Origin: a virus
Lineage: Duplodnaviria; Caudoviricetes
Length of the DNA stretch: 64,000 nucleotides
Reading direction: 5' to 3' (one strand)
IMG/VR virus record: IMGVR_UViG_3300028549_000249
Location: 1-64,000 of that record
The notes beneath the pieces were generated by a model. It did not search any database. It saw nothing but the letters and a program-made list of their open reading frames with translations, and was not told where the DNA came from. A program made the translations under genes and the position numbers. The first letter of the stretch is position 1. Each line of letters opens with the position of its first letter. Of this stretch, positions 21,049 to 62,099 are shown piece after piece.

Positions 21049-21273
21049 ATGAGTCGTAAACCAAGGCCAGTCGTCCTGCTTCCCGAAGATGTAGCTTTTT
21101 GGAAGGAGACCACCGAACGCGAAGTGTTCGTTACCGCTGATCGTTTATGTAAGCACTACGCGAAGCTCGGCAAGGAGGTCCGAGTCGTGTGGCAGTCAAC
21201 CCATTGCATCTCGGTCACGCCTATCAGTCCAGTGGCGGTGGTTGCCGTTAGGAAGAGGACGAGAAATTTCTGA
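21049..21273 (+). CDS. small protein ending VRKRTRNF
   Basis: ATG 21049 after the promoter at 20971 and an AC-rich leader. Confidence 0.65.
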   Translation: MSRKPRPVVLLPEDVAFWKETTEREVFVTADRLCKHYAKLGKEVRVVWQSTHCISVTPISPVAVVAVRKRTRNF

Positions 21274-21344
21274 CTTTATTCTTGCAAAGGATAAATCCAT
21301 AGGCTAGTCTACACCTGCCCATTGATAGAGGGGCAATTCAAAAC

Positions 21345-22985
21345 ATGAACGCAACAAAATACCAGCAGGAGTTCGGCACGCTTAGTGCCGCAGGCGTAGC
21401 GGTGGTCGCTACAAGAACCCGTGAACCCTTCCGGTGCATCGATGCGCTTCGAGGATGGGCATTCACTAAAGACATCCCCTTCGGTCTCTGGAACGTCAGA
21501 GACGGTTGGATGCAGGAGCTACCGTCCGACGACCCAGACAAGGTGCCGACCAAGGATCAGGTGGTGGATATGTATAAGGCCCTTATGATGATCCTCGACG
21601 TTCCCAGTAACGGTAAGAACGCGAAGAAGTCCGGTGTCTATGTCATGCACGCCCCCCACCACTGGTTAGGCAAGCATCCAGGAATCATCGAGTGCCTCCG
21701 CAACTATGTCCGAGACATGGGTGAGAGTCCTAAGCTCAGAATCGTGCTGGTCATGCCAGAAGGTCAGACCTTGCCAGATGATCTGAAACACGACATCCCG
21801 ATTCTCGACTTCGACCTCCCCGACTTCGATGAGCGGATGGACATCTTCGATTACGTGATAGAGTCTTCAACTCCACAAGGGCAAGAGGTTCCGTCGCTGT
21901 TCACCGAAGTCCAACTTCAGACGGTGGTCGGTTCGGCGGGCGGGATGACCCAAATGGAGACGGAAGTCGCCTTCTCGAAAGCCGTAGTGCTTCAGCGCCC
22001 AGCATGGCCTAACCTCGACTTCCACGAGTTCAACCGCTGCGTGTTAGACGCCAAGACGGAGATCGTGAAGAACTCGGAGGTGTTAGAGATGATGGAGCCC
22101 GTGCCGATGAATGAAGTCGGCGGACTTGAAGTCTACAAAGCTTGGATCACTGAAGCTGCACTCTGCTTCGGACCAGAAGCCGAGGAGTTCGGAGTCGATG
22201 CACCGAAGGGGGTGGTAGTCATCGGTTCGCCCGGGACAGGTAAGTCACTCGTCGCCAAAGCAACCGCAGCGGTGCTGAGGATGCCTCTGGTGAAGTTCGA
22301 TGTTAGTCGCCTGTTCGCCTCCCTTGTCGGCCAGTCCGAGGAGAGAACGCGAGGCGCTATCAAGATGCTTGAGGCGCTGTCACCATGCGTGGCATTCGTG
22401 GACGAGATCGATAAGGGACTCGGTGGCGCACACCAAGGCGGAGGCGACTCCGGTGTGTCGAAGCGCGTGCTGGGTGCAATCCTCACAGCAATGCAGGAGT
22501 CAAAGTCTCCTATCTTCTGGATTGCATCAGCTAACCGCACGGATGGACTTCCGTCCGAGCTTCTCCGCAAGGGCCGCTTTGACGAAGTGTTTGCTGTGCT
22601 CTCGCCTAACCGCACGGAACGCGAAGCGATCTTTAAGATCCACCTGAAGAAGAGGAAACAGGACATCGACTCTATCGATGACCTCGACGTCGCTGTCGAA
22701 GCATCACAAGGCTACGTCGGCGCGGAAATCGAAGCCGCATGTAAGGAGGCAGTCAAGGTGGCCTACGTCCGTAAGGTCGTTGTGTCCGGCGCTCTTCTAG
22801 CTGAGCAGCTCGGAATGATGAAGCCGCTCCGCGAAGCCTTCCCAGAAGACATCGCTCGGATGGAAGGATGGGCCGAGAACAACGCACGCAACGCATCCCT
22901 AACTATCGAAGCCGAGGCTTTGGCCAGCGATGAGGCTACGCCGATCCATAAGCGCGTCCGCCGCCGCCGCTCGGTGGGTGAATAA
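21345..22985 (+). CDS. Ycf46-like AAA+ ATPase
   Basis: Degenerate N-terminal AAA domain; GSPGTGKS Walker A; VAFVDEIDK Walker B; ANR...LPSELLRKGRFDE SRH; W...ARNAS C-terminus. Confidence 0.85.
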   Translation: MNATKYQQEFGTLSAAGVAVVATRTREPFRCIDALRGWAFTKDIPFGLWNVRDGWMQELPSDDPDKVPTKDQVVDMYKALMMILDVPSNGKNAKKSGVYVMHAPHHWLGKHPGIIECLRNYVRDMGESPKLRIVLVMPEGQTLPDDLKHDIPILDFDLPDFDERMDIFDYVIESSTPQGQEVPSLFTEVQLQTVVGSAGGMTQMETEVAFSKAVVLQRPAWPNLDFHEFNRCVLDAKTEIVKNSEVLEMMEPVPMNEVGGLEVYKAWITEAALCFGPEAEEFGVDAPKGVVVIGSPGTGKSLVAKATAAVLRMPLVKFDVSRLFASLVGQSEERTRGAIKMLEALSPCVAFVDEIDKGLGGAHQGGGDSGVSKRVLGAILTAMQESKSPIFWIASANRTDGLPSELLRKGRFDEVFAVLSPNRTEREAIFKIHLKKRKQDIDSIDDLDVAVEASQGYVGAEIEAACKEAVKVAYVRKVVVSGALLAEQLGMMKPLREAFPEDIARMEGWAENNARNASLTIEAEALASDEATPIHKRVRRRRSVGE

Positions 22986-23007
22986 TCCAACCCCAACTAA
23001 CACCACA

Positions 23008-23658
23008 ATGAAAAATATAATCAAGACCCTATCAGGTCAGGTCAACCTTCTGAAACAGTCGGCTAAGGTGTGCATCTTCCACGCCCCGCGAAGGGGCAGC
23101 AAGGGCCATTCCGAAGTCTATCTGGATAAGGCCTCTACCTCTGGTGTCACTGGTGGCGAGGATGGGGTGGTCACCCGAATTGGGTTCCCCACTCCGTTCC
23201 CGTCAGTTCCGGGATGCTCCACCGAAGTCGCAGGTCAGATGTTCATGCAGTCCTTCGGCATCGAAGAGGGGGAAGTGATTAAGGTGTTCGTCACCTGTAG
23301 GCGCGGATGGGGCAAGCTCCCACTCGTTGGTTCGGTGTTCCTCCGTGCCCGCAAGGACGCCGCTTACCGCAAGGTGTCCTTCGTGATGATCGACCACCCA
23401 GACGTCGCTTTCCGTGAGTCAACTGTCGAAGGCAACCTCGACATCCTAACATTGAAGGATGTCTTGGCCTTAGGTGTCCACGTTCCGGTGCCTTACCGTC
23501 CCATGGCCGAACAGCACGTAGTTGACCGCCTGATCACCAAGGACCTGATTGTCGAGCCTGAGCATTGTGCTCCTATCAAATATACAGACAAGGTGATCTC
23601 AGACGGCACTACCGTTAAGACCATTACCGTCCGCAAGCGGAGGCGCGTGATCGAATAA
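23008..23658 (+). CDS. hypothetical protein ending VRKRRRVIE
   Basis: ATG 23008 after an AACACCACA leader. Confidence 0.7.
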   Translation: MKNIIKTLSGQVNLLKQSAKVCIFHAPRRGSKGHSEVYLDKASTSGVTGGEDGVVTRIGFPTPFPSVPGCSTEVAGQMFMQSFGIEEGEVIKVFVTCRRGWGKLPLVGSVFLRARKDAAYRKVSFVMIDHPDVAFRESTVEGNLDILTLKDVLALGVHVPVPYRPMAEQHVVDRLITKDLIVEPEHCAPIKYTDKVISDGTTVKTITVRKRRRVIE

Positions 23659-60471: not shown

Positions 60472-61160
60472 ACACTAAGGATCTAACAGCTCTCCGCCGC
60501 AAGTGGTTCCTACATATGTGCCGTAGGGTGACTCTGGACCAGACCGTCTTTCACGGCTCGCCTACCGAGGGGATGTGGCAGATCCGCCGCGATAAGATGC
60601 TCCACCCGCAGGCACACGGGGAACTCCCGGGCGACTGGCTCTGCGTGTCGGTCAACGACAACATGCTCCACTTCTTCTCCGATGGCGAAGGCAACAATGG
60701 GTTCCACTCGTCTCCGGGGCCGCTCAACCTCATCCAGCTTGACCGGATGCACCATGCGCTTCTCACCCGCGAGTCCTGCGATCATGTCACCCAATGGAAA
60801 GAGGACAGGCCACATGAGGTGATGCTCGCACAGCGCCTTGGCTATCTCGAACGGCAGAGGTTCGGCGAGGACTACCTCACCAAGGAGGAACTGGATGACA
60901 TGCTACCCAAGGACATCGACGGCCTGCTCTTCCCGTGGGCCGAGCTAACACCTGAGGGTGATCGATTCTACTACTTCTGCAACATCTACAATGACGAGTG
61001 CGAGATCGCTCTTACCGAACGTGGCTGCAAGAAGGTGTGGGCGGGAATCGAAGTCATCTACCATAAGGGGGAGGAATACGAGCCTGAGGTAGGGTGGAGG
61101 AAAATGATGCACGGGAGTAGGAGCCATGTCATGCGCAGGAAGGCAGAGCTTTGCTCATAG
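60468..61160 (+). CDS. hypothetical protein, possible ADP-ribosyltransferase-like fold
   Basis: VFHGS ... LCVS ... CEIA pattern only; weak. Confidence 0.4.
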   Translation: MNTKDLTALRRKWFLHMCRRVTLDQTVFHGSPTEGMWQIRRDKMLHPQAHGELPGDWLCVSVNDNMLHFFSDGEGNNGFHSSPGPLNLIQLDRMHHALLTRESCDHVTQWKEDRPHEVMLAQRLGYLERQRFGEDYLTKEELDDMLPKDIDGLLFPWAELTPEGDRFYYFCNIYNDECEIALTERGCKKVWAGIEVIYHKGEEYEPEVGWRKMMHGSRSHVMRRKAELCS

Positions 61161-61320
61161 AACGACCCGAGGGGTGCGCCCGCCCCTATCGTAGCTCAAT
61201 CGGTATCGTGAGAAGGAGAGATTGACTCCCTGTGGGGTCCGGTGCTAAGGTCCCCAACGCAAAGCCACCCAAGGTAATTCGCGGGTCGCGTAACCATACC
61301 AAACAGGAATATACATCACC

Positions 61321-61980
61321 ATGAAGAAGACGGACAACCCTCCGCCTGCCACCGTAGCGGTTCGCAAGCGGACGAGACAACAGTCCCAGACCAAAGCAAG
61401 TGCTACTGCAATGGTCGAGGGCATCACAACAGACAAGGAACCAAAGAAATCTAACAAGCCAATCCATACCCAAGCGGGCACGGCGGTAACGGTAGATGCG
61501 TGCGGGAATCCTAAGGAAGCAGAAGGGAGACCAGACCGGAGGCGTGACCCCGAACTCGTTGCCTCCCTCCTCCAATACATCTTTGCTGGGAACCCATATA
61601 AGCATGCGTGCGTCTTAGCGGGCGTGGATGAGACCACGTTCTTCCGGTGGATGCGCGAAGGAAAGACCGCTGAGGAAGGCACGCTCGCCTATAGCTTTTA
61701 CCAGCGCGTTAAAAGGGCCAATGCCGATGCCGCCCACAGGAACATGATGAGGATTCAAAAGTCCGTGCCAGGATGGCAGTCTTCTGCATGGTTCCTCGAA
61801 CGCCGATTCCCTGATGAGTATGGTGCGACGTCGAGAATCAAACTCGGTAGCGATGAGGAGAATCCTCTCGTGGTCGGAACTGTCGGTCTCCAAGTGGACG
61901 ACCGTGTGCTGTCTGACAAGGGAGCATTCGCCGCCCTCAAAGCGGTCCTTGCTCGCAAGCCCGAACTGCTGAACGGATGA
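61321..61980 (+). CDS. terS: terminase small subunit
   Basis: GNPYKHACVLAGVDETTFFRW HTH; WQSSAWFLERRFPDEYG; upstream of TerL. Confidence 0.8.
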   Translation: MKKTDNPPPATVAVRKRTRQQSQTKASATAMVEGITTDKEPKKSNKPIHTQAGTAVTVDACGNPKEAEGRPDRRRDPELVASLLQYIFAGNPYKHACVLAGVDETTFFRWMREGKTAEEGTLAYSFYQRVKRANADAAHRNMMRIQKSVPGWQSSAWFLERRFPDEYGATSRIKLGSDEENPLVVGTVGLQVDDRVLSDKGAFAALKAVLARKPELLNG

Positions 61981-62099
61981 GCCTCCTGCCATTACTTGCC
62001 ACCTTGTATTTCTCAGGGGCACAGACGAGTGGGATCATCATGCCGAAGATCCGAACCTATGCTGTGTCGAAGTTCGAGCCTCAGAGGAAACGTAGATGA
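61977..62099 (+). CDS. 40-aa gene between terS and terL ending QRKRR
   Basis: ATGA overlaps at both ends; hydrophobic N-terminus. Confidence 0.5.
   Translation: MSLLPLLATLYFSGAQTSGIIMPKIRTYAVSKFEPQRKRR

Follow-up and report, generated by a model that had tools for sequence, protein, structure and literature searches.

A recurrent arginine-rich peptide at the ends of unrelated phage proteins and its possible tie to a Ycf46-type AAA+ ATPase module

We analyzed the first 64 kb (the window) of the 87,985-bp IMG/VR virus record IMGVR_UViG_3300028549_000249, here called G000, for a short basic peptide, RKRxR and its close variants, that recurs at the ends of unrelated proteins. Positions beyond 64,000 are given as whole-genome coordinates. 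The terminase, portal, head protease and tail genes identify the record as that of a tailed phage, and nearly all its genes are carried by the + strand. According to the annotation, the window comprises head-tail adaptor and neck genes followed by tail and lysis genes, up to 20.7 kb, and a replication and recombination block. That block encodes a RepO-like protein, DnaB, a family A DNA polymerase (PolA) with a uracil-DNA-glycosylase-like domain, a primase, an SSB-like protein, an SNF2-type helicase, RecA, an HNH nuclease, two resolvases, an exonuclease and RNase H. TerS and TerL are also encoded in the window, and the genes for the portal, head protease and major head protein lie past it.

RKRxR occurs eight times in the real proteins of the 87,985-bp genome, each time within 25 residues of an end and never internally. 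Shuffling predicted 0.11 terminal and 0.32 internal occurrences, and the observed count was reached in 0 of 300 shuffles. With the looser pattern [VIP]R[KR]R, 14 terminal occurrences were found against 0.74 expected, whereas the 2 internal ones were close to the expected 1.8. Thus, 14 of the 123 proteins (11.4%) carry the tag, compared with 0.8% of 1828 proteins from 70 other phage loci and 0.9% of 796 proteins from 71 metagenome loci. The first of these control sets is conservative, because tails of the ATPase module described below are among its proteins. The enrichment proposed in an earlier note on this DNA therefore holds against both the shuffled proteome and other phages, and every tag site listed there is present where that note had placed it.

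The tags contain 4 to 6 basic residues and follow a regular syntax. Arginine occupies positions 1, 3 and 5 in 11 of 15 clusters, compared with 12 of 66 generic basic ends in the controls (p = 8e-5), and V or I is found at position -1 in 9 of 15, compared with 7 of 66 (p = 1e-4). At least six tags are N-terminal, placed 4 to 20 residues from the end. The codon of the first arginine differs among tags (CGC, AGG, AGA or CGA), their flanks are unrelated at the DNA level, and an excess of CGCAARCG in the genome is fully explained by the tags themselves. A DNA-level repeat as the source of the tag is ruled out by these observations, and selection therefore acts on the peptide, as the earlier note had argued.

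Sequence comparisons delineate a module consisting of a small open reading frame (ORF), a Ycf46-type AAA+ ATPase, a partner protein, and DUF1257-like and DUF2997-like genes. The ATPase matches PF00004 at 96.6 bits, and profile searches matched it to the D2 domain of VAT, Cdc48 and p97 at 1e-82. Its model has an overall predicted local distance difference test (pLDDT) score of 86, and Foldseek aligned it with the D1D2 part of Cdc48/p97 over about 560 columns (TMq 0.62-0.64), which places it in the classic clade of AAA+ proteins with a tandem D1-D2 architecture. The C-terminal tail (residues 524-544) scores below 50 and is predicted to be disordered. Most of 120 ATPase homologs end with a basic cluster, then a small residue, then I, V or L. 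The partner gene lies directly downstream of the ATPase gene and keeps this place in 14 phages, to an ATPase identity as low as about 32%; its product ends in an R-R-[IVAM]-x-[LVIM]-like tail in all 14 aligned phages, with one invariant arginine. The alignments thus locate the deepest conservation of the tag in the ATPase and its downstream partner, both of which have tagged tails in each of the relatives examined. A complex prediction for these two proteins gave a score of 0.00, which weighs neither way. As for the last two genes of the module, the scores in the window fall under the PF06868 and PF11211 thresholds (22.2 and 24.1 bits, respectively), whereas syntenic orthologs at loci L001 (29.9 bits) and L002 (26.9 bits) are above them. 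A literature search on the DUF1257/DUF2997 module returned gene-neighborhood mentions only.

Eight whole or near-whole genomes of relatives were compared with G000. Megablast against the GenBank phage set found no close relative (a single 40-base match was obtained), and related-locus searches queried with single proteins gave no matches. The ATPases point to Rhizobium phage L338C (47% identity; G006), Aeromonas phage HJ05, and siphophages of Rhodobacter and Pseudomonas as the nearest relatives in culture. The nearest metagenomic relatives reach 72-79% ATPase identity; the metagenome scan returned mostly generic AAA+ proteins, with L083 as the sole close relative obtained. G005, the nearest complete relative, has a GC content of 43.5% and 40 proteins in common with G000, and G004 and G008 are sister phages.

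Tags are retained by orthologs across 40-79% identity, which supports the reading in the earlier note. In G005, they are found in the ATPase, partner and small upstream ORF families, on PolA, TerS and RecA, in the families of the 31570 and 38095 proteins, and on two proteins encoded before the portal. Of 100 G005 proteins, 13 bear a terminal basic cluster (2.7 expected), and of 93 G001 proteins, 10 do so (2.0 expected). The tag of the SSB-like protein is C-terminal in G000 and N-terminal in G005, and the reverse is true of the 70343 family. The tags thus behave like portable modules; RecA, TerS and the 31570 protein are tagged in both genomes. Orthologous tags include AVRSRRIECD at the end of the small ORF (locus L001 of G005), TRRRRAVLS near the N terminus of the 31570 protein of G005, MTTAKRSRRSV and MATTVRKRRATTI at the start of its 38095 and RecA proteins, AVRARRRKRAIE at the N terminus of its TerS, and MKRNKKKKA at the start of the 48841 protein of G003.

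As judged from the terminal sequences, each lineage has its own tag dialect, and in several lineages the same dialect is present on many unrelated proteins. KRA[IV]xL ends at least seven unrelated proteins in G004, RRxINL[EQ]DD is found on four adjacent genes and the partner in G008, and the dialect of L338C is R[RK]x[IV]xLD. A generic end signature was found 9, 9, 7 and 5 times, compared with about 1 expected. The partner tail matches 4 other proteins of its own genome in G000, G005, G004 and G008, and 0 to 3, mostly 0-2, in other genomes. The sister dialects have just two basic residues, often an acidic end and a near-neutral charge, and DNA binding therefore cannot be the general function of these tails. 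The tagged proteins of the sister phages are small and clustered in one region (L187:4899-19296 in G004, L194:18905 to L195:1168 in G008), and ten tagged proteins from these two genomes could not be assigned to any PHROGs family.

The module genes and the tagged proteins of G000 are listed in Table 1.

Table 1. Module genes and tag-bearing proteins of the phage. Positions are those of the window unless marked as genome coordinates.
Feature	Coordinates	Strand	Tag and family match
Small ORF upstream of ATPase	20971..21273	+	C-terminal tag VRKRTRNF, 21247-21270
Ycf46-type, Cdc48/p97-like tandem D1-D2 AAA+ ATPase	21345..22985	+	C-terminal tag KRVRRRRSVGE, 22950-22982
ATPase partner protein (family of alignment A3)	23008..23658	+	C-terminal tag VRKRRRVIE, 23629-23655
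DUF1257 (Ycf35)-like module gene	23765..24364	+	Untagged; PF06868 16.1 bits, below threshold
DUF2997-like module gene	24397..24600	+	Untagged; PF11211 20.7 bits, below threshold
Family A DNA polymerase (PolA), UDG-like N-terminal domain	28471..31443	+	Basic C-terminal helix WRKKKRRGIILAD, 31402-31440; Pfam
Protein without assigned function	31570..32106	+	N-terminal tag VRKRTRLIE, 31627-31653
SSB-like protein	34683..35648	+	C-terminal-linker tags VRRRLRK (35526-35546) and VRRRKRQE (35577-35600); N terminus MATKRRA
Protein without assigned function	38095..38439	+	N-terminal tag IRKRAR, 38104-38121
RecA-like recombinase	38444..39712	+	N-terminal tag MTTKRRKEIEI, 38444-38476; PF00154
RuvC-like resolvase	41511..42170	+	C-terminal tag VRRRSRKAL, 42141-42167; PF02075 19 bits, below threshold
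Protein without assigned function	47068..47433	+	C-terminal tag IRKRERIVL, 47404-47430
Protein without assigned function	48055..48828	+	C-terminal tag PRKRRRVIE, 48799-48825
Protein without assigned function	48841..49473	+	N-terminal MKRKRT, 48841-48858
Small terminase subunit (TerS)	61321..61980	+	N-terminal tag VRKRTRQQ, 61360-61383; phrog_4102 at 1e-23
Further tags past window	genome 70355, 71434, 77142, 80572, 87588		

Tagged proteins with a known family nearly all handle DNA: the SSB-like protein, RecA, the RuvC-like resolvase, TerS and, past the window, a glucosyltransferase-like protein of phrog_842. The carriers known from relatives include, in addition, a Holliday-junction resolvase, an exonuclease and a DNA-binding regulator. 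DnaB, primase, the SNF2-type helicase, RNase H and TerL are untagged. Atlas look-ups (22930-23658 and 48055-48828) and PHROGs gave no names for the unassigned carriers. The earlier note had not seen the motif on virion proteins. None of the tail and lysis proteins in the window is tagged; past the window, however, tagged proteins adjoin the portal (79069-79716 and 79756-80595) and one follows the major head protein (86973-87626), and the end of the portal itself is basic, so that the earlier statement is valid for the window's tail genes alone. Two further sites from that note are present as sequence and less secure as tags. QRKRR ends a 40-codon ORF (61977-62099) of doubtful reality. MRKRTR opens an alternative-frame ORF of about 290 codons that runs from window 63604-64000 on to genome 64486, where it overlaps the intein-like C-terminal part of TerL; neither of its halves had a Pfam match. 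TerL itself has an intein splicing-domain match near its end, below threshold.

The longest RecA ORF uses a TTG start at 38303 and overlaps the preceding gene; tblastn with RecA of G005 indicates the ATG at 38444 as the real start. The SSB-like label comes solely from an acidic DDIPF tip, the only family match of the protein being phrog_17226, whose function is not known. Most of 30 orthologs of this protein have one or two arginine clusters in the linker before the acidic or aromatic tip, and some have them at the N terminus instead. Eight identical residues, RKRRRVIE, are found on the ATPase partner tail and on the 48055-48828 protein. The latter is a paralog of genome 76347-77174 (L081:12347-13174), with which it has the C-terminal stretch PKTLKDNPRKR[RK]R in common; neither had a PHROG or Pfam match. 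The starts at 31570, 38444, 48841 and 61321 have A/C-rich words (CTAACA, CATCACC) in place of an upstream Shine-Dalgarno-like sequence, which suggests a host with Shine-Dalgarno-independent initiation or leaderless transcripts. All eight strict RKRxR tags lie in window reading frame 0 (21250, 23632, 31630, 38107, 47407, 48802, 61363 and genome 71437), which holds 44% of the coding sequence (p about 0.001 for eight in frame), and looser tags occur in every frame; the coincidence is probably due to chance.

The earlier note had counted the RKKKRRGII segment of PolA among the tags, which the structure model contradicts. Residues 961-990 have a pLDDT of about 90, with a helix at 972-983, and the model depicts WRKKKRRGIILAD as a basic surface patch in an ordered helix, not a floppy tag. 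PolA orthologs retain W-x6-G-[IV][IV]L-x-D, and only in the nearest ones is this region basic; distant orthologs have a conserved nonbasic element at the same place, such as ERWQALLDYGVIVKG. The N-terminal uracil-DNA-glycosylase-like domain of PolA matches PF03167 at 22.6 bits, just below threshold, and many orthologs have the same architecture.

In G000 and its nearest complete relative, copies of the tag are found on the floppy ends of DNA-working proteins and of several proteins of unassigned function. We propose, with a probability of about 0.45, hence slightly short of even odds, that the RKRxR peptide is the arginine-rich dialect of a docking or address label linked to the Ycf46-type ATPase module, and that it has spread in this lineage to DNA-acting proteins, among them a DNA glucosyltransferase-like enzyme. 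A single reader, be it the ATPase ring, another protein of the module or a common partner, would recognize the tag and thereby bring tagged proteins to a protein-remodeling machine that might load, recycle or strip complexes on DNA in the course of replication and packaging. The tail of the ATPase would use the same reader site, and the unusually arginine-rich form of the tag in this lineage probably adds weak nonspecific DNA affinity. A client list of DNA-acting proteins would fit a segregase that works on DNA-bound complexes, by analogy with ClpX and MuA or with p97 and chromatin proteins. In a broader version, which we regard as possible and rather doubtful, many tailed phages would encode a Cdc48-like segregase with a proteome-wide address code, written in lineage-specific dialects of terminal peptides. 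No firmer is the suggestion, made by analogy, that the clients here may be the replication, recombination, modification and packaging set, whose DNA complexes the ATPase would load, recycle or strip. Protein sorting by the tag, as put forward in the earlier note, is thus something that we infer. Its suggestion that an AAA+ ATPase recognizes the tag gains indirect support, in that the ATPase and its partner are the deepest carriers and the sister phages copy the dialect of the module tails.

Several observations weigh against this interpretation. No reader protein was found. The ATPase model has no separate N-domain, D1 beginning at residue 1. The excess of hydrophobic residues behind the basic cluster does not reach significance (17 of 26, compared with 122 of 255 in controls; p = 0.10), and the nearness of C-terminal clusters to the very end is marginal (p = 0.055). 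About a third of the G000 tags have no hydrophobic part of the kind typical of the module tails, namely those of TerS, the 38095 protein, both SSB-like copies and the glucosyltransferase-like protein. The flavor of the tag tracks base composition, being RRR in relatives of high GC content and K-rich in the one with 43.5% GC, which weakens the case for a co-evolving reader. Both control sets were gathered with an AAA+ query. Lastly, the bias to DNA-handling proteins suits a plain DNA tether equally well.

Such a tether is the main alternative, less probable in our view than the address tag. Arginine-rich floppy ends would bind DNA nonspecifically as a "molecular sled" with no protein reader, and would so gather the proteins of replication, recombination, modification and packaging, along with the ATPase, at the phage DNA or nucleoid. 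It would account for the DNA-handling nature of nearly all carriers with a known family, for the untagged tail and lysis proteins in the window, for the drift of tag flavor with GC content, and for the tags that lack a hydrophobic part together with the nonsignificant hydrophobic enrichment after the cluster. PolA, with its basic surface helix instead of a peptide tag, is also consistent with it. Four basic residues suffice to bind DNA and slide on it, in any order (PMC4797294, PMC4740752), and the phi29 terminal protein has a basic N-terminal domain that scores as a nuclear localization signal (NLS) and targets the nucleoid (PMC4974454). However, the sister-phage tails at the same position (KRAIxL, RRxINLEDD) are near neutral and cannot tether DNA, the partner tail keeps its hydrophobic residues at a fixed spacing, and the syntax of G000, with R at 1, 3 and 5 and V or I at -1, has a regularity well beyond the needs of sliding, which is indifferent to residue order (PMC4797294). 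The lack of tags on DnaB, primase, the SNF2-type helicase, RNase H and TerL also speaks against a tether. The address-tag and tether readings may each hold in part.

Other functions of the tag appear much less probable. A degradation or remodeling signal for a host AAA+ protease such as ClpXP, timing the removal of early and middle proteins, is improbable, even though the tags lie on disordered ends and ClpX reads short unstructured signals at either terminus, including the MuA tag CILEQNRRKKAI, which is basic and then hydrophobic (PMC12723719). The ends of the RuvC-like protein (RSRKAL) and of the 47068-47433 protein (RERIVL) fit its C-motif 2, but Glu or Asp is the last residue of many C-terminal tags (VIE, SVGE, ILAD), and the N-terminal ones are placed inward. 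The most conserved carriers are the phage's own ATPase and partner, which is hard to reconcile with a destruction signal. More improbable still is a capsid-loading or packaging signal that binds the procapsid interior, scaffold or portal, so that tagged proteins are packed and injected. Terminal cargo tags do exist, as in the T4 capsid targeting sequence and encapsulin loading peptides, and the tags next to the portal and major head protein, along with the basic portal end, would agree with such a role. Nevertheless, most carriers, such as the SSB-like protein, RecA and the resolvases, serve replication and recombination and act on replicating DNA, which would make them an unusual cargo, and what accompanies the tag from phage to phage is the ATPase module rather than a head gene. 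Equally improbable, and already disfavored by the data, is the absence of any shared function, the basic ends being independent, tolerated at termini, and raised in number by paralogy and composition. Even the controls have about twice as many generic basic clusters at termini as shuffling predicts (88 versus 46), and one carrier pair (48055-48828 and 76347-77174) is paralogous. Independent origins do not account for a strict motif that is 13 to 30 times more common than in controls, for its regular syntax, for its retention by orthologs across 40-79% identity, or for the parallel expansion of dialects in sister phages.

Some of the destinations and partners named in the earlier note gained no support. 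The classical monopartite NLS pattern K-K/R-x-K/R is matched by RKRxR and KRKR as a resemblance only, and nuclear import of the eukaryotic type has no support here: the record is that of a tailed phage, and its cultured relatives infect Rhizobium, Aeromonas, Rhodobacter and Pseudomonas. No compartment was found. Nor was there a hyperacidic hub protein, the highest content in any 30-residue stretch of the phage proteins, 42442-43647 included, being 12 Asp/Glu. Acidic-aromatic tips end the RepO-like protein (25210-26610, ..FPKWD), DnaB (27157-28425, ..DSSWME) and the SSB-like protein (34683-35648, ..EDDIPFK), and they are retained in relatives, e.g., ..VEDLVDWME and ..TFDDWIDE in G005. In this they are similar to the acidic tails by which the T7 replisome is organized, and the basic tags might have their counterparts in them.

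If the module does read the tag, this would provide a first functional handle on the widespread and uncharacterized Ycf46, Ycf35/DUF1257 and DUF2997 set of phages, cyanobacteria and plastids, and ordinary-sized phages would organize their replication and packaging proteins by a portable peptide code. The client list could then be read straight from the genome, which makes the system directly testable. If the tag is merely a DNA tether, it would still be a clear natural case of sled-like peptides across the proteome of a bacterial virus.

We found no published description of such a tag in the literature search, and several known systems resemble it in part. AAA+ unfoldases share C-terminal docking tails with alternative partners, as with HbYX of PAN, Rpt and Cdc48, and GQYL of Mpa and Bpa. 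As in those systems, the phage ATPase has its short tail in common with a protein that is not an ATPase, which implies one docking site; the phage tags differ in having no penultimate Tyr, in lying also near N termini and on a dozen further proteins, and in that no proteasome-like receptor is known here. The p97/Cdc48 class uses arginine-rich linear motifs and C-terminal tails for docking, the VBM consensus being EhRRRRLxhh (PMC5389986). VBM and VIM are short arginine-rich motifs followed by hydrophobic residues, present on unrelated proteins, which they direct to a AAA+ segregase of type II; the phage tags resemble them in part, and p97 and the phage ATPase have their D1-D2 fold in common. 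The VBM pattern fits RKRRRVIE, RKRTRLIE, RKRERIVL and RRRRSVGE and misfits the TerS, 38095, SSB-like and glucosyltransferase-like tags. Unlike the tags, these motifs are helices that bind a cleft of the p97 N-domain, which the phage ATPase model lacks; moreover, the phage ATPase itself carries the tag.

Viral peptides that bind DNA offer another comparison. The adenovirus pVIc sled (PMC4740752, PMC4797294) is a terminal viral peptide with four or five basic residues and the core KRRR, a likeness that would explain the bias to DNA-handling carriers. A sled calls for at least 3-4 basic residues on a flexible peptide, and the phage tags have 4-6, with the ATPase tail modeled as flexible and the PolA segment as helical. 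Sliding is indifferent to residue order, in contrast to the regular syntax of the phage tags, and the sister dialects are too weakly basic to bind DNA. The phi29-type terminal protein (PMC4974454) is also a phage replication protein with an NLS-like basic segment, placed at the nucleoid by nonspecific DNA binding, but there a single protein bears a helical domain of about 70 residues, whereas here a tag of 6-10 residues is found on many proteins. A further comparison is with the ClpX signals, C-motif 2 (MuA RRKKAI) and the N-motifs (PMC12723719), which are short, lie at either end and have an AAA+ reader; that of MuA, basic and then hydrophobic, serves the remodeling of a DNA-bound complex. 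Their reader is a host enzyme, and many phage tags differ from them by ending acidic or sitting several residues inward.

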